Shown here in pieces: positions 7,541 to 62,011 of a DNA stretch of 64,000 bases. Source of the DNA: Octopus vulgaris (lineage: Eukaryota); the NCBI GenBank assembly GCA_951406725.2, contig OX597822.1, positions 85,312,001 to 85,376,000 on the forward strand, read 5' to 3'. Every line of letters begins with the position of its first letter. Position 1 is the first letter of the stretch. The notes beneath the pieces were generated by a model. It was not told where the DNA came from. It worked only from the letters and a program-made list of their open reading frames with translations, and did no database searches. The position numbers were made by a program, and so were the translations under genes.

Positions 7541-7705
7541 CATATAGACAGATATATAGATAGATAAATATACATATATACACACATATTCCATGCATGC
7601 ACATACATACGTGCGTATGCATATCTGTATCTGTGTCTGTACGTATGTATATATGAGCATGCATGTTTATACATAAATACATGCACACACATACATATAT
7701 ACACG

Positions 7706-7796
<91 letters not shown>

Positions 7797-8163
7797 TCCG
7801 AATTCACACATTCACACAAACACATTTACATTCTAATTGATGCACGTCGTTGCCTCACCTGCACAACACACACTCTGTTCCCTCTCTCCCTCTCTCATAC
7901 ATACAAACACACATACATTTACTCAGACAGTGGGTGGTGGGGAGTCCATAGGTCCACTGCCCCATTGTACTAGGTTGAACAACCACCAGAGTGCTGTGGG
8001 AAAATGCACGTGGGCTGCCGTGTTGTGCCTGGCAGGGCTGAACGCATCGCCGTGGCTGGCAGGTCAAATATTGACTCTCGCCGACTCCGTCTCCCTTGCC
8101 CTGTGTCTCTATATCGCACCCACATTTACACTTAACCACTCGCATACATGTGCTCACACAAAG

Positions 8164-13415: not shown

Positions 13416-13493
<78 letters not shown>

Positions 13494-13654
13494 GTTGTAT
13501 AAAGTCAACATAACGTGACAGTCCTGTAGAGGGAATTACACCACCGCTATATAGCCCTAGGAAGCATCGACGCTTCCTGTCGGCTTTGACACATTTGGTG
13601 TGTCCTTATATTTGCAAAGGAGAGGCAAGCACCCCCACCAGCTAGAACGAGCAA

Positions 13655-13700
13655 CCTGGAGACATGCATGTTTCTGGGTCTTGTCCGTCGTCAGTCCAGG
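13655..13700 (-). ncRNA. Type I hammerhead ribozyme (element A, minus arm)
   Basis: Exact reverse complement of 13961-14006. Confidence 0.85.
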
Positions 13701-13960
13701 GTAGCGTGTCCTCACTAGCGGTGGTACTTACCAAGCCTTCGCAAATATATGTATTTACAGTGAAATTTATTCACTGGTCACCGTAATTAGAAATATTGAA
13801 TTTCTAAATGAGCGGTGGTGGAGCGATAGAGTGGTTGTACAAAGTCAACATAACGTGACAGTCAATATTTCTAATTACGGTGACCAGTGAATAAATTTCA
13901 CTGTAAATACATATATTTGCGAAGGCTTGGTAAGTATCACCGCTAGCGAGGACACGCTAC

Positions 13961-14006
13961 CCTGGACTGACGACGGACAAGACCCAGAAACATGCATGTC
14001 TCCAGG
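13961..14006 (+). ncRNA. Type I hammerhead ribozyme (element A, plus arm)
   Basis: CCUGGA-CUGACGA-C GG acaagac CC A-GAAA-C AUGCAU G-UC^UCCAGG: 6-bp stem I, intact core, palindromic stem III, predicted cleavage after C14000. Confidence 0.85.
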
Positions 14007-14232
14007 TTGCTAGTTCTAGCTGGTGGGGTTGCTTGCCTCCCCTTTGCAAATATAAGGACATAGCAAATGTGTCAAAGCCGACAAGAAGCATCGATGCTTC
14101 CTAGGGCTATATAGCGGTGGTGTAATTCCCTCTACGGGACTGTCACGTTATGTTGACTTTATACAACCACTCTATCGCTCCACTACCGCTCATGTCTCGT
14201 TGAGACATTTAGAAATTCAATATTTCTAATAT

Positions 14233-14895
14233 GTTAGTTAGTTAGTTAGTTAGTTAGTTAATTTGGCTCAAAAGCAAATAGCAAGGCCATGTAGGGGGAC
14301 ATGGAGTTAAGTACAGGGTGGTGTTCATGTAAAGAGTTCAGGCCACTTGAGGTCCAGGGAGGCTTTGAACAAAGCGGTCGTCGGCATCTTCACCATCTCG
14401 TCTGGCAGCTTGTTCCACGGATCCGCAACCCGGACGGAGAAAGCTCCTCTCCTTCGATTGAGATGAAATCGTCGCAGGTAGAGCTTTTCGGAATGACCCC
14501 GCAGCCGACGCTCCGGAGCAGGAGTGAAGAACAGCTCTTTCGAGAGGTTACACTTCCCGCTTATGATGTTGTGGGCGAGAATGAGATCACCACGGCGGCG
14601 GCGTTTTTCAAGAGAATAAAGGTCGAGCGTCCTCAGCCTTTCTTCGTAGGACAAATTTTTGAGACCATGAACCATGCGGGTAGCCAGCCTCTGGACTCTT
14701 TCGAGATGCTGTATGTCTTTGAGGAGATAAGGAGAAGAGGCTTGAATCCCATACTCCAATATGGGTCTCACCAGCGTGACATAGAGTGGCAGGAATATGG
14801 CTGCTGTGAGCATTCCGAATGACCGTCGAATCAAAAACAGAATTCCGCGCGCTTTGTTGGCAGCATGGACGCACTGGGCCGAAGGCGAAAAGGAG

Positions 14896-14896
<1 letters not shown>
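14233..14896 (-). mobile_element. 5'-truncated CR1-group LINE (ORF2 C-terminus, 3' UTR and (TAAC)n tail)
   Basis: Open frame ...LYVTLVRPILEYG...LERVQRLATRMVHGLKNLSYEERLRTLDLYSLEKRRRRGDLI...RGHSEKL...FSVRVADPWNKLP. Tail at 14233-14260. Possible AATAT target duplication at 14228/14897. Confidence 0.92.
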
Positions 14897-14929
<33 letters not shown>

Positions 14930-15701
14930 TAAAAAAGAACGTTGTCTCGTAAGCCAAGTTAGACAAGCAGGCATTACTGCGATCCGATGAGCTGTAATGA
15001 ATATATACTGACAATCTCACTTTACTGAGAACTAATGACTGGAACGCTGCGATCTTTTAATGATACCTGCAAATTAAAAGTTGTTTTCCATCAATTATTA
15101 CCGTCACATCCACCTTCTGCCAAATACTTACTCTGTTCTCTGGTTTGTAGCCCCGGTCACTGTGCTCTTACTGGGAGGGTGCTGTCAGCGGCGGGGTCTG
15201 TTCAGCCCAGAACTTTTGGCGGGTAGAATGGCTATTCTCTGAAATGATAAATGGATAAACATAATACAAATACGGATGTAAGAGGAGATAATGTAAGAAA
15301 AATCTTTTTTCTAAGAAGGCAAGATGGCTGTCAAATGTTTTTCTACTTGCTCCGCATTTCCTGTCTCCAGTTGTTTCTCTCTTTACTTCGATTTCATTCG
15401 ATTGATTGGTTTAATATTGTCCACACTTAACACTTCCTTACACACAAAGACAACTTTCGCCTCACCTCAGACACCCACCACCATCCCCACATTTCCACCT
15501 ACATATTTTTAAACCTCTTTTCATAATTACTTCATCGCCATTCAATCTTCGAACATCTTTTCTCTTTTGTAAAAAAAAAGAACAAATCTTTCTATTTATT
15601 TATTTATTTATTTATTCTTCTCTTTCCAAATCAATCATTCACTCAATCGATCCACTTTGTTCTTTCTTTCTTCTTTTCCCCGATTACCACCCCTTTCACT
15701 C

Positions 15702-18885: not shown

Positions 18886-19189
18886 CACGCACACACACAT
18901 ACACACATATGCACACACACAAACACACAAACACACATATGATATTTGATTTGGGGGTCGAAAATGCATCTGAGTCTTAAAACGAACTGTAGCTTTGAAT
19001 TTAGCTTTTTTTTCGACAAACTTACATATTCATTAAAGTACCATACCGGTTTCACAATTCTTTGTTTTTTAATGATAAAAAAATGTTTTTTTTTTGTTTT
19101 TTGTTGATAAATAAATAAAAAGTTTAAAAGAAATCAATGGTACAGGTGTTCTATGAGTTCAAATGTTCGATGTTTTGCATAATTCTTGG

Positions 19190-19440
19190 ATGATTTTGTC
19201 CGCTCTATTCCCTTTATTATTCCGTTATGTATTAAAGTGACCGGGAATTGTCTTTCGAGTAATATTTTTTCAACTTCTTGGAATCATTTCTCCCAGGTTA
19301 CGGGATTCGATACAATTGTACAGATTCCTCTTGCCAGCTTAAAAGGTATTTTGATTTCGTATACTTTGGTTGGCAGCAAGAAAGGCAGATATTGTTCTGA
19401 GTTTGTTTTTTTAAGTAGATGTCGGTCATGTTTATATACA
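19190..19440 (-). pseudogene. Penelope-like element reverse transcriptase fragment (C-terminal RT/thumb)
   Basis: Minus translation MTDIYLKKTNSEQYLPF..PKYTK / IPFKLARGICTIVSNPVTWEK*FQEVEKILLERQFPVTLIHNGI resembles the PLE TDIYYKPTD..YL...SCHP.HTK..IP..LARRICTI signature. Contains stops and frameshifts. Confidence 0.8.
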
Positions 19441-27377: not shown

Positions 27378-28535
27378 TTGAGTTGAGTCATAAATAATTT
27401 CCGGTTTTTTTAAGTAAATCGTAATGACACATTTCGAACTTCAGATGTTTAATATTCAAATGGAAACTTTCGTTTTTAAAAGAGCCTCATCTGTCATTCG
27501 TATTTAAGCAGAGAAATTGTGCACATCATAGTTTAATATTAAATTTCACTCCACTAAAATGGATGAACTGGAAGTGGATATTCAACATGTGATGTTGTGA
27601 GAGTTTAAGAAGAGAAAAACACCACAGAAACAGCTAAGAAAATTTACCAAGGCCAAGAAAACTGACCAAGGCCAAGAAAACTGACCAGCAAGTGTGAAAT
27701 TGGCTTTCAAAGTTTCGTTCCAGGGATTTGTCATTGCGAGACGACACTTATCAAACTTCGCACCAGGACACTTATCAGACTTCGATCATGATGCTTTAAG
27801 AAAATTAGTGGAATTCAATCCTTGTAAAAGTGCTTGGGAATTAGCAGTTGACCTCAACACATCCCAATCCGCCACTTTGAAAAGTTAGGAAAAGTCAGTA
27901 AACTAGCTGTTTGGGTTCCCTGTACTCTTAGTGAGAAGAATAGGGAAGATCAGATGTCCATAGGGACAAATCTTTCAAGGGAGAAAAATGACCCGTTTCT
28001 CAATAATATCATTACAGGTGATGGAAAATGGATCTTTTATGACAATGTTCAATGCAAAAGGCAATGGACTGACAAGGATAAATCCCAACAACTTATCTCA
28101 TGTGCATGAAAATCTTTTAAGAAAATGCCCTGCACTTGTCAATCGGAGAAACATTGTGCTTCTCCATGATAACAGAAGACCACATTCAGCAAGGATCTCG
28201 CAGGATAAAATATTGGATTTGGGCTGGTATGTTCTATCCCATCTACCATTATCACTGGATCTTGCACCAACTGATTTCCATCTTCTTCACTCTCTACAAA
28301 ATTCTCTGATGAGGAAAAAAGTTTCTCAAGAAAATCAGGTGAAAACGTAAGTGGAAAGCTTCATGTCGAGGCCAGCTGAATTTTACTCGGGATGGATAAA
28401 AAAGCTTCCTGATAAATGACAAGAGGTCATTCAAAATAATGGCGACTATATTGATAATTGAAAATAATTCTTTGTAAAATTTTTCATGAGTAAAGGTATT
28501 TGATAAAATCGGAAATTATTTATGACTCAACTCAA
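27378..28535 (+). mobile_element. Mariner (DD34D) transposon, internally deleted and non-autonomous
   Basis: TIRs TTGAGTTGAGTCATAAATAATTTCCG at both ends with TA duplications. Disrupted transposase with WVP, IITGDGKW, LLHDNRRPH and SLDLAPTDFHL motifs. Confidence 0.93.
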
Positions 28536-36230: not shown

Positions 36231-36332
<102 letters not shown>

Positions 36333-36350
36333 TAGTTATAGGTTTAGTTA

Positions 36351-37142
36351 TAGGAGACATTAAAATCTAGGCTGAGCAGCACGTAGGACGCCAGAAATGG
36401 TCAAGTACCATAATGTAAGGTTCGCATAACAACCACAAAGGTGTCCAATATGTTTGTAGGATACCGTAGATATGTAAGTAGCAAATTCGATTTAAACCGG
36501 GAATCCACCTCAGAGTTGATTCTAGGTATGACGTACATATAAAAACGTATACAAATGGGGTTTAGTATCTTAAATCCCATTTGTATTCTTGTGTGTGGGG
36601 GGAGGTAATGTATGCTGTTGTTGTTCTTGTTGCGTGTGTGTGTATATATATATATATATATTTACATATATATATAAATACATATACATGTACACAGTCA
36701 CCCCAAGCACACACGCACATACACACACACACACACACACAGAGTTCACTTCTCCATTACTAGTTATGGAATCTCACCGCGTGGGATCTTGGATGAGTAT
36801 TTTTTTTTTTTTCACCATAGCCTCGAGTAGACCCATTCCTTGTGAGTAGAACTGGGGCTTCCCGGGAACTTTTTTGAAAAGAGTCTCACACTGTGATGCT
36901 AAACCCTCAAAGGAATTCCGTTAAGGGGGACTTTTTTCTGTAGAATGGTCAGCCACATCACACGTACATTTAACGGTTGGTTCATTCATTTAATGGAAAG
37001 AGTGAATAGTCATCCTCGAAATTGATGGAGGACCGAAATGTATACATGCGTGTGTACGCTTGTATTTATGTACGTATATTTACATGCGTATATGTGTGTA
37101 TATAAATTTATGCGTATGTATATACATAAGCATATACGTATA

Positions 37143-37174
<32 letters not shown>

Positions 37175-37179
37175 GATAT

Positions 37180-37210
<31 letters not shown>

Positions 37211-37270
37211 TATAGATAGATAGACAGATGCATACATACATACATAGATGCTTATATATCAGTTACATAA

Positions 37271-37304
<34 letters not shown>

Positions 37305-38092
37305 AGACATTAAAATCTAGGCTGAGCAGCACGTAGGACGCCAGAAATGGTCAAGTACCATAATGTAAGGTTCGCATAACAACCACAAAGGTGTCCAATA
37401 TGTTTGTAGGATACCGTAGATATGTAAGTAGCAAATTCGATTTAAACCGGGAATCCACCTCAGAGTTGATTCTAGGTATGACGTACATATAAAAACGTAT
37501 ACAAATGGGGTTTAGTATCTTAAATCCCATTTGTATTCTTGTGTGTGGGGGGAGGTAATGTATGCTGTTGTTGTTCTTGTTGCGTGTGTGTGTATATATA
37601 TATATATATATTTACATATATATATAAATACATATACATGTACACAGTCACCCCAAGCACACACGCACATACACACACACACACACACAGAGAGTTCACT
37701 TCTCCATTACTAGTTATGGAATCTCACCGCGTGGGATCTTGGATGAGTATTTTTTTTTTTTCACCATAGCCTCGAGTAGACCCATTCCTTGTGAGTAGAA
37801 CTGGGGCTTCCCGGGAACTTTTTTGAAAAGAGTCTCACACTGTGATGCTAAACCCTCAAAGGAATTCCGTTAAGGGGGACTTTTTTTCTGTAGAATGGTC
37901 AGCCACATCACACGTACATTTAACGGTTGGTTCATTCATTTAATGGAAAGAGTGAATAGTCATCCTCGAAATTGATGGAGGACCGAAATGTATACATGCG
38001 TGTGTACGCTTGTATTTATGTACGTATATTTACATGCGTATATGTGTGTATATAAATTTATGCGTATGTATATACATAAGCATATACGTATA

Positions 38093-38128
<36 letters not shown>

Positions 38129-38129
38129 C

Positions 38130-38164
<35 letters not shown>

Positions 38165-38224
38165 TATAGATAGATAGACAGATGCATACATACATACATA
38201 GATGCTTATATATCAGTTACATAA

Positions 38225-38257
<33 letters not shown>
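36351..38257 (+). repeat. Tandem duplication of a ~950-bp unit
   Basis: taggagacattaaaatctaggctg starts at 36351 and 37301. Copies differ almost only in microsatellite and homopolymer lengths. Confidence 0.95.
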
Positions 38258-39210
<953 letters not shown>

Positions 39211-45939: not shown

Positions 45940-47175
45940 TATAGTGTTTAACATTTCATTATCCCCTAATTGGGATACGTTTAACTTGGTTAGTATTAAT
46001 TCTGTTGTTACATTGGTCAGAATCGGAACTGCGTCAGACAAAATACCTAGAGGTATTTAGCAATGGCATTCCTTATGTTCTGAGTTCAAATTCAACGAAG
46101 ACCAATCTCGCTTTCATCTTTCATCGATGAACACCCTCCCTCGAAATCAGAAGCCATTATCATCAGTTTCTAATGGAATCAATTAAATTGACGCCAGCAT
46201 ATTGGAAGGGATTTGTAGAGAAGGGAACGCTAAATTCTGTATAAAGCATTTGGTCTGTCACCATATTTGTATGAATTCTTTGCCCTTCGTTTTCTGAACT
46301 TGGAACCTGTGATCTTCATTTAATGTGAGCCTGGAGTGAGGGGTCAGACTCCCTTGGCTTTCCAGGGTCAATGATCCGTCGGATAATTACATCTGGATGA
46401 TGATTAACTAGACAATATTAGGCAGTTTGAACTTTATAGAATAAAGGAATTCTATTATGTGGCGATCAAAGTAATTTTTGAGACAATGATAAGGTAGATA
46501 AAAGGAAATGGATCGAACAGGAATTTAAAACTGGACTTGGGAATCGTCTTCGTGAAAACTAAATTTCTGTCTTAATACATTTCTGGAGAAATGGCAATGC
46601 CGTGTGTTTCAGAGAAGAGATAATGGGATGTTATGATGTTTTAGCGTTTATGCTGTCTCCTTAAGTTCTCTTCATTAAAAATAATTGATTCCAATCTGGA
46701 ATTTAGAGAGGAACTGACTCGCTTGAAGGATTAGGTTTTGAAGATTTGCTCTTTGGGGTTTGCACTAAAATCAATAATTATAGTTATTAGTAACCAATCA
46801 CAAATTTGAGGGAGAGTGTTAGTCGATTAAATCGACCCCAGTATATGACTGGTATCTCGATTTGATAAACAGCAAAGTTGAATTCGAACGTGATTAGGAC
46901 TCAGAATGTAAAGAACTAGAGCAAAAACTAAAAGTTATTTTGTTCAAGTCTTTAACGATTTTACTATTCTTCAATAATAACAATTCTTGTCAGTAAGATC
47001 CATTCCTACAATAAGACGTATTTCTTATTGAAAGAAGAAGACCTGAGACATCTGGGTCGTTTATACTTTTTTTCAAAGAGACAGAGATGATTTAACACTC
47101 AATCGTCTCAAAAGGTTTGATGAAACTCCTGCTAAAACAATAAAATAAAGAAACAAAGCAATGTTTCTGACTTAC

Positions 47176-47620
47176 CTCGATGACAGTGAATGATCACCTT
47201 TTTGGGTTGCTCCCCTACCGAGCGGTTGATGTTCTCTTTGGTCTGGACATCAGACTCGACGAGTTCCGTGAGGAAGCTGATGTAGCCAATAGCCAGACGG
47301 AGGGTGTCGACTTTGGACAGGCGCTTCTCGTACGGTAACGTCGGGATGTGCGCCCGTAGACCCTCAAACGCTTCGTTGATGCTCTGCATCCTCTTCCGCT
47401 CGCGAAGGTTAGCCGCTTGTCGTTGCTGAATCTGTTGCTGCGGACACCGCCTCTTCCGGCGTCGCTGCTTCACCAGACTCGTCGAATCCGTGTCGCCACT
47501 GCTCGGCGACGGCGATGACGAAGATGACGTCACATAGGTCATGTCATCGACTGGCGAATAGGCCGAAATGGAGAAATCGGTTAAGAAATGTTGCGAATGG
47601 CCAAAGTCTAGATTTTCCAT
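47176..47620 (-). CDS. Ptf1a: Ptf1a (pancreas transcription factor 1 alpha/Fer1-type bHLH), coding exon 1
   Basis: ATG at 47620. b[60 protein letters not shown] followed by [10 protein letters not shown], typical of PTF1A. Phase-1 donor G|GTAAGT at 47176/47175. Confidence 0.96.
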
Positions 47621-47754
47621 CAGGAGAAGCGCCAGCTTGCTGGATGTGGTGGGGGACGGCCAAAGAGGTTAAGCTGGTGTTTAGATGTAGAGGAATGTGT
47701 TTAGATTATTAATATCCGTTTAGGTAATGTGTTTGTGTGTGGGAGGTGTTTGTC

Positions 47755-61090: not shown

Positions 61091-61312
61091 CGTTTACGTA
61101 TTTGTTTTGCAAGATTGCTGATGTGAAATCGCGTGTTGAAACAGATATTGTTGTATCTTTTTTTTTCTTGCCAAATAAATACATACGCTGTATAGTGCAA
61201 GTGTTTATCTGGCAAGAAAAAGAAATGACCATCTTAAAATACAACAACATAACAATAGAAAATTAATATTTTTAAATCTAACAACGAGAGATATTCAGCA
61301 ACAGTACTTTGG

Positions 61313-61549
61313 AGTAAAGATTGTTTGCCAACATAACATGGCACTCCTGGTTTAGGATGAATGTTGCTGTAATTTATCCCCAGGAGACATCGACGCGATC
61401 TGTGTCCTTATTTTTCCCCCGCTGTTCGAAAATATAAGGACACAGACCGTGTCGTATATCCAGCCGGAGACGTTTCTCCGGGGGCTAAATTAAAGCAACA
61501 TTAGTCCTAAACCGGGACTACCATGTTATGTCGGCAAACAGTCTTTACT
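61313..61549. mobile_element. Fold-back relic C related to retrozyme-like elements A and B (no HHR retained)
   Basis: Imperfect inverted repeat (61313-61415 vs 61429-61549) carrying ATAAGGACAC..GTGTC, GGGGCTAAAT and CGGGACT..GTTATGT motifs shared with A and/or B. Confidence 0.6.
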
Positions 61550-62011
61550 ACAACATAACAACATATATATATATATATATATAAGCAATAATAAATCTAT
61601 ATGGGGGGTGAGTGTATACGTATATATTACATTACATTATATTATACCATATTATACAATATTATATTTCTATATAGTATAATAACAGTGTTACTGTAAC
61701 TACTATGGATGTAAAAAAACTAATCAAAACAAATAAAAAGGTTGTTGTAAACCACAATATCAAAGGTTGGTAGAAAGTGGGGGAAGAACAGAATAGCTTT
61801 GAGAGGTTTATCAATTTATTTATTTATTCAAAGGAGGAAGGGAGCAGCCATGAACCTTTTCAGAGCTTCCGTGATGGTGGGGGATGCAAAGGAGGAAGGA
61901 CTCTGTTAAAGGTCCCACCCCCAAGCACCAGGTGGAGCTCATAAACTTAGTGACAGATTAAATCTACGTCAGATAGGGATGGGAGTCAGTTTTAATCGAA
62001 CATTATAAATA

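Follow-up and report, generated by a model that had tools for sequence, protein, structure and literature searches.

Hammerhead insertions in the window

The window, by which we mean the whole 64,000 nt stretch of Octopus vulgaris DNA that was analysed, contains three insertions, here named elements A, B and C. All of them (3/3 window elements) consist of two arms set back to back, an inverted, 5′-truncated arm lying beside a direct copy. Their features are as follows, with copy ends 1 and 2 referring to the two sites at which copies of these elements end.

13486-13863, minus strand: element A, inverted arm, ~1 monomer; its 3′ end is copy end 1 (monomer position 122) and adjoins a (TA)n tract
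13549-13610, minus strand: two-hairpin module in the inverted arm of A (covariance model E 2.6e-9)
13661-13694, minus strand: type I hammerhead core motif in the inverted arm of A (motif match)
13862-14230, plus strand: element A, direct arm, one monomer plus tail; its 3′ end is copy end 2 (monomer position 177)
13967-14000, plus strand: type I hammerhead core motif with palindromic stem III in the direct arm of A; predicted to cut after 14000
14051-14112, plus strand: two-hairpin module in the direct arm of A, made up of AAG, hairpin 1, an AGCC stem, a 4x3 internal loop, hairpin 2 and URG-GGCU-A (covariance model E 5.3e-7)
14113-14230, plus strand: predicted three-way junction of A, with copy end 1 (~14175) and then tail hairpins to copy end 2 (14230)
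38258-38427, minus strand: inverted arm of element B, terminating at copy end 2, in which the module (38373-38426) has an internal deletion
38462-39062, plus strand: direct arm of element B, comprising ~1.7 monomers (360 nt each) and terminating at copy end 2 in front of (TA)n
38524-38588, plus strand: two-hairpin module in B monomer 1 (covariance model E 4.1e-8)
38809-38842, plus strand: type I hammerhead core motif of B, CCGACGA variant, with palindromic stem III (motif match)
38885-38947, plus strand: two-hairpin module in B monomer 2 (covariance model E 3.1e-7)
61256-61415, minus strand: element C, inverted arm, with an 18 nt deletion in the module that creates GUCGAUGU; ends at copy end 2
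61423-61553, plus strand: element C, direct arm, 5′-truncated, hammerhead lost, with the module at 61433-61490 (E 8e-11); ends at copy end 1

A 12 bp direct repeat (61243-61254 and 61550-61561) flanks element C and is a candidate target-site duplication, and a ~950 bp tandem duplication, 96% identical, lies immediately left of element B (36231-38256). Elsewhere in the window are a decayed C-terminal fragment of a Neptune-like Penelope reverse transcriptase (RT) at ~19041-19415 on the minus strand (profile match E 7e-11), a 243 aa frame just downstream of element A (14325-15056, minus strand) that we take to resemble the 3′ end of a LINE RT, a bHLH-domain exon (47132-47668, minus strand) that is presumably Ptf1a, and a frame at 27964-28350 (plus strand) that we take for a fragment of a mariner-type transposase.

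The first-pass annotation of this DNA had singled out a series of short ordered blocks shared by the three elements. Most of the blocks are where they were reported. ATAAGGACA is found at 14052, 38886 and 61434, with further copies at 13601-13609(-), 38417-38425(-), 38525 and 61403-61411(-); CCTTTGCA is common to A and B, at 14041 and 38876; and CGGGACT is common to A and C, at 14135 and 61513. TTATGT, the last of the blocks, is present at 14148, 39010 and 61526, but it does not hold a shared position in the order, as the copy in B is not homologous to those in A and C. In A and C, UUAUGU is a hairpin loop ~20 nt upstream of copy end 1, while in B it is at the first copy end, and the homologous hairpin of B has a different loop.

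One retrozyme family with many subfamilies

By their sequences, A, B and C belong, as subfamilies, to a single abundant hammerhead repeat of 348-362 nt, of the non-LTR retrozyme type. A first look at the genome returned 2,929 candidates for A, 1,349 for B and 1,196 for C, with 40 scored for each, and the B copies, which hardly differ from one another, are arranged in arrays with a period of 360 bp. Upstream of the module, the family consensus of each of the three has a type I hammerhead motif whose stem III is palindromic, and that of C retains the hammerhead that has been lost from the window copy. Rather than being otherwise dissimilar, as had been thought, the three families have in common a type I hammerhead motif 47-57 nt upstream, a monomer of 353-360 nt and a predicted branched fold. 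Among eight monomers, the core hammerhead motif with palindromic stem III was found in 8/8, with the predicted cut site 47-57 nt before the module in every case. These monomers (348-362 nt) are also predicted to fold alike: the hammerhead caps a long arm, and the rest of the fold comprises the two hairpins of the module, a three-way junction and, in the tail, small hairpins.

Searches by pattern, by profile and with DNA sequence brought in the further subfamilies A2, D, B2, B3, C2, E, F, F2, G, H, I and K. The genome contains 3,380 matches to the hairpin 1 pattern versus 18 for a reversed control, 11,437 to a short-form hairpin 2 pattern versus 121 for controls, and 8,932 to the family hammerhead pattern versus 10 for controls; as these are exact-pattern matches, the counts are lower bounds. 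A looser hairpin 1 pattern gave 167 matches versus 268 for controls, among them the real subfamily E and matches to unrelated coding-like repeats, which were dropped.

Most of the subfamilies were found via the module. When loci were picked by the hammerhead, using a pattern drawn from those same subfamilies, the module was present downstream in 27 of the first 30. This figure is made up of 26/29 by covariance model and L460, which was outside the 29-locus scan since it overlaps L459, and in which the module was read from the sequence. The three module-less loci represent one other hammerhead family and one duplicated chimera. That other family, found at L455:1500 and L484:514, has a palindromic stem III and is not followed by the module. 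A covariance model from which A- and B-type sequences had been left out still recovered both of their modules in the window. The comparisons indicate that the module is common to A, B and C through common descent in one family, and not through convergence or module exchange.

No RT or endonuclease match was found inside the repeats, and the matches to Penelope-like element (PLE) proteins at these loci lie in the flanks. A conserved reading frame starting at the AUG of hairpin 2 was considered and rejected, as the frames, compared by eye, differ and stop early. A 159 bp tandem satellite at L191 (G000:C7:121946800-121951100) is derived from subfamily E and has kept the module and lost the hammerhead core and tail.

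The module pattern had no matches in viral contigs. In metagenome contigs it matched 94 loci; at none of these did hairpin 1 occur together with an upstream hammerhead, and the matches were taken as chance. A bacterial palindromic repeat in the metagenome contigs (L268, L273, L285 and L316) fits the pattern via a similar hairpin 2; it has no hammerhead, and the likeness was judged coincidental. Contigs from sequencing runs span the whole B monomer and some are self-closing, which genomic tandems would be too; RNA, strand and ends are not readable from these contigs, and none of the runs carrying the sequence is listed as RNA. Rfam returned no matches for the window at the gathering level or for the A and B regions at E up to 10, and the hammerheads in the same stretches were missed too. 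We found no published description of an octopus retrozyme or of this fold; the supplements of PMC7229834 and of a 2026 preprint (bioRxiv 10.64898/2026.07.22.740005) may hold related sequences.

A conserved two-hairpin module

In 11 subfamily representatives, the module can be parsed as a 3 nt junction, hairpin 1, a 0-4 nt linker, an AGCY stem, an internal loop of 4-5 by 3 nt, hairpin 2, URG, RGCU and A. In this parse, which was fitted to the structure, 174/176 cells are paired, 9/16 pairs show double-sided changes and 7/16 are invariant. Against shuffle and slide controls, which ignore the relatedness of the sequences, a model-fitted alignment of 18 distinct sequences has 95.2% of cells paired and 9 double-sided pairs, versus 4.7 in shuffles (0/500) and at most one when the partners are slid, and an unfitted alignment of six sequences has 7 double-sided pairs (2/500 shuffles). 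Seven intact modules fold at z -2.8 to -3.8, while two deleted minus-arm copies do not. Covariation is not limited to the module: pairing is predicted to be maintained in the hammerhead arm and in other stems as well.

Between-group identity in the eight monomers is 0.60 for the module and 0.62 for the hammerhead core, compared with 0.38-0.48 for five flanking regions and 0.23-0.28 for shuffles; the surrounding sequence, which had been said not to align, is thus above the level of shuffles. For 15 single copies, hand-chosen from the hammerhead-pattern matches to cover the types seen, the values are 0.66 for the module, 0.67 for the hammerhead core, and 0.47 and 0.49 for the flanks. Between subfamilies, the module is therefore more conserved than its flanks (0.60-0.66 versus 0.38-0.49). 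Within each family, copies decay evenly along their length, as expected of neutral copies.

The invariant bases of the module are G.C.C in hairpin 1, AGC, the internal-loop C and URG. The spacing between conserved blocks varies (20-25 and 23-28 nt), as do the loops and linkers, by up to 5 nt, and the combination of seven invariant pairs with variable loops and linkers fits RNA recognition better than a DNA site. The leading AUA that the first-pass annotation included in the conserved part is replaced by GGC in B2, CUU in F2 and UGA in F; in the predicted fold it forms the base of the long arm that bears the hammerhead. Where hairpin 1 starts, AAG-GAC is replaced by UAG-GGC in both lineage B3 and lineage F (L399:4183-4603 and L230:1550-1610); the two sides change together, and a tertiary contact may be the reason.

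Judged by alignment and predicted folding, the module is a real, well-defined, conserved two-hairpin RNA domain of a known kind of element, with a function that we infer. The earlier proposal of a selected cis-acting RNA structure is supported by the covariation and by conservation at the level of the hammerhead core.

Copies end at two sites

The 3′ ends of copies cluster at two sites, ~117-131 and 162-178 nt from the module start, or ~65-75 and 105-125 nt beyond the module. Of 289 distinct 3′ ends, 226 are within plus or minus 8 nt of the two sites (95 and 131, respectively) and 63 are elsewhere, where the end windows were set from the same data, the second window is too low for subfamily G, and identical TA flanks collapse B copies. 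The two windows are ~44-58 nt apart and delimit an optional tail between fixed ends.

Both ends could be classed in 62 of the 92 two-armed loci. One arm ends at end 1 and the other at end 2 in 58 of these, three have end 2 twice and one has end 1 twice, so that use of one site per arm (58/62) has a p value of 2.6e-13 against 0.5. Element B is among the three loci with end 2 on both arms. The insertions are found beside TA-rich DNA. The 281 copy 5′ ends are scattered, and they pile up neither at the hammerhead cut nor within the module.

Insertions of endonuclease-containing (EN+) PLEs are described as partial tandems with an inverted, 5′-truncated arm and a tail at one end, and a preference for (TA)n is given for octopus Naiad and Hydra, in the accessible part of PMC8557442. 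In their layout, the two-armed, two-ended copies are a Penelope footprint.

Penelope-type elements in the same genome

Also present in the genome are young, intact elements whose proteins, of 781, 776 and 784 aa, combine an RT with a GIY-YIG domain; we label these elements Neptune-like from our reading of the motifs. A search of PDB sequences with the 781 aa protein returned no matches. Intact Neptune-like elements (L151-L155 and L369-L398) also have an upstream frame and degenerate minimal hammerheads, and the terminal repeat of the 781 aa family includes CCAAT- and TATA-like motifs. In Neptune-like terminal repeats, minimal hammerheads are followed by a short AT-rich stretch from the cut site to the element's own two copy ends, which implies that no fold such as the module is needed there.

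When the covariance model was run on 20 PLE loci, no module was found except for a single strong match in L157, ~600 bp beyond the end of the Neptune-like repeat, which is a separate retrozyme insertion. It was also not found in 30 further intact Neptune-like loci or in a Poseidon-type terminal repeat. Searches for partners used the GIY-YIG family (148 matches), a related protein (59 matches), a homologue search and a profile scan of locus flanks, and turned up Neptune-like and Poseidon-like elements, all without the module. These results apply to those Neptune-like and Poseidon-type loci that were sampled. The module co-occurs with hammerheads, but not with the sampled Penelope-like terminal repeats. 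One B array adjoins a Neptune terminal-repeat fragment (L036-L039, one locus), and no other does so among the B loci listed; this neighbour was given no weight.

A chimera in L462 (1479-1641) and L463 consists of a piece of subfamily K that ends exactly at the predicted cut site, followed by a Neptune-type tail of the L142, L354 family. The tail starts exactly at the predicted hammerhead cut site of that element, and there are no shared bases at the joint. The chimera is present twice, by local duplication, 3.58 kb apart (G000:C1:1716086 and 1719666; L501:4065-4227 and 7645-7807). It represents a single event, which could be either ligation of two cut RNAs or a template jump. Being joined at both predicted cut sites, it links the retrozyme and Neptune systems and gives an indirect hint of RNA self-cleavage.

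Comparison with known systems

Metazoan non-LTR retrozymes, as set out in the accessible part of Cervera and de la Pena 2020 (PMC7229834), consist of 150-450 bp units in tandem, each with a single type I hammerhead and no ORF, and those of mussels are 350-390 bp; mobilisation by PLEs has been proposed there. The octopus family resembles them in its short tandem units, in having one type I hammerhead per unit and in lacking an ORF. The retrozymes in that part of the paper have species-specific sequences, and no conserved non-hammerhead domain, fixed copy ends or cephalopod is described in it. Expression and circularisation are shown for those retrozymes, whereas the octopus family is known here from genomic sequence.

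In Xenopus, 24/57 retrozyme families are homologous to known elements, nearly all of them PLE termini, according to the part of the 2026 preprint available to us (Li, Clavereau, Pollet 2026, bioRxiv 10.64898/2026.07.22.740005). Like the vertebrate non-LTR retrozymes in it, the octopus family is non-autonomous, bears a hammerhead and co-occurs with PLEs. Unlike the Xenopus families with homology to PLE termini, it shares its module with no sampled octopus pLTR.

For the Poseidon element PAc of the green anole, the accessible part of Frangieh et al. 2024 (PMC11167929) reports that the RT starts at two internal sites, which define a tail, that both strands are extended, that ~90 nt 5′ of the first RT start are required, and that a dimer is predicted. 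PAc and the octopus retrozyme are alike in having two 3′ sites that make a tail and a hammerhead upstream. They differ in that PAc is autonomous, its required region is the start of the ORF and its tail is 30-40 nt rather than ~44-58 nt, and the likeness drawn here is one of layout. With the EN+ Neptune, Naiad and Hydra insertions in the part of Craig et al. 2021 available to us (PMC8557442), the octopus copies share partial tandems, an inverted arm, a tail and a preference for TA; unlike those elements, the retrozyme has no ORF. The accessible supplement of that paper includes four matches to TAAGGACA, none followed by the module.

What the module may do

We put at roughly 0.5 the probability that the module is a docking site at which a borrowed Penelope-type RT-endonuclease binds the RNA, so that copying begins at two fixed downstream points. 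This reading is drawn from the covariation, the hammerhead-level conservation and the fixed place of the module between the hammerhead and the two copy ends, together with the use of one end per arm, the behaviour of the anole Poseidon element and the chimera. Of the roles put forward in the first-pass annotation, RT recognition fits the geometry and remains the best reading; the absence of a module-bearing autonomous partner is the main result against it. In the Alu domain of SINEs, the R2 3′ UTR and the docking elements of telomerase RNA, a folded RNA 5′ of the copying start recruits or positions the RT. The parallel is one of analogy, and no loop-loop pairing is conserved in the octopus module.

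The same conservation and covariation could instead mean that the module is bound by a host protein with a role in stabilising, localising or ligating retrozyme RNA, with RT recognition in the junction and tail hairpins further 3′. Sampled autonomous elements without the module are in keeping with this, as is the small hairpin followed by an AT-rich stretch before copy end 2 that was seen, by eye and unscored, in the retrozymes and some Neptune-type tails. However, a host-protein site leaves the fixed distance to the copy ends unexplained, and no host RNA family was matched in Rfam, which also missed the hammerheads; we regard it as unlikely, though less so than the readings that follow. A module with no job of its own, kept by descent as a stable part of a generally folded circular RNA, would agree with one ancestor for all subfamilies, with the predicted folding of the whole monomer and with the even decay of copies within families. 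But the other stems keep their pairing and drop to 0.38-0.49 identity, while the module, at 0.60-0.66, equals the catalytic core, and this explanation appears improbable.

The remaining roles had, in some form, been raised before. A role at the DNA level, as a promoter or enhancer from which the following monomer of a tandem array is transcribed, has precedents in the snRNA-type promoter of newt satellite 2 and the Pol III promoter of schistosome satellites (both as cited in the accessible part of PMC2220036), yet it is at odds with double-sided changes in 9/16 pairs and with variable block spacing. Nor was the tRNA-type motif seen: the eight monomers contain no A box, B box, exact octamer or tRNA, judged by standard consensus motifs, and we think a promoter quite improbable. 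For a second, unrecognised ribozyme one could cite the invariant bases around the internal loop and the lack of a fitting Rfam family, but one hammerhead per monomer already accounts for the unit length, the tandem B arrays have been copied through the module repeatedly, and none of the 281 copy 5′ ends forms a peak in it (a weak argument, as there is none at the hammerhead site either). No support was found for a catalytic motif, and it is very improbable. Least credible is a kissing loop for RNA dimerisation at the apex of hairpin 2, which is contradicted by the wider family. The self-complementary apex, GUCGAU, is found in A, A2, D and B and is missing in 7/11 representatives, and GUCGAUGU, the example from the minus arm of C, is the product of an 18 nt internal deletion of the family sequence and thus a deletion junction.

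If the module is a docking site, the retrozyme repeat would be transcribed, cut by its hammerhead and circularised, by analogy with coral, mussel and axolotl retrozymes. A Penelope-type protein would then bind at or through the module, with the invariant bases recognised either by the protein itself or by a host adaptor delivering the RNA to it. As a dimer, the protein would nick both DNA strands and prime once from each, at end 1 and end 2, and copying round the RNA would yield arrays and back-to-back arms. A bolder form of this proposal, which we put forward tentatively and consider less probable than not, is that the module is an RNA-only adaptor evolved by the parasite and absent from the host element, which recruits in trans a Penelope RT that is telomerase-like and dimeric, and places each of the two active sites at its own start point on one small RNA circle, and that hammerhead cutting joins retrozyme and Neptune RNAs in vivo.

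Implications

The class of element is already known, and for the candidate docking fold it is the function that we infer. The family bears on RNA recognition by Penelope-like RTs, which are more closely related to telomerase RT than any others. It supplies a 55 nt candidate docking fold with natural compensatory variants in 11 or more subfamilies, and the two start sites have been mapped. Intact young candidate enzymes are present in the same genome, and with all of these at hand RNA recognition becomes a matter for direct binding and extension assays. Were the docking fold portable, it would be of interest for RNA-templated insertion by RTs as well.
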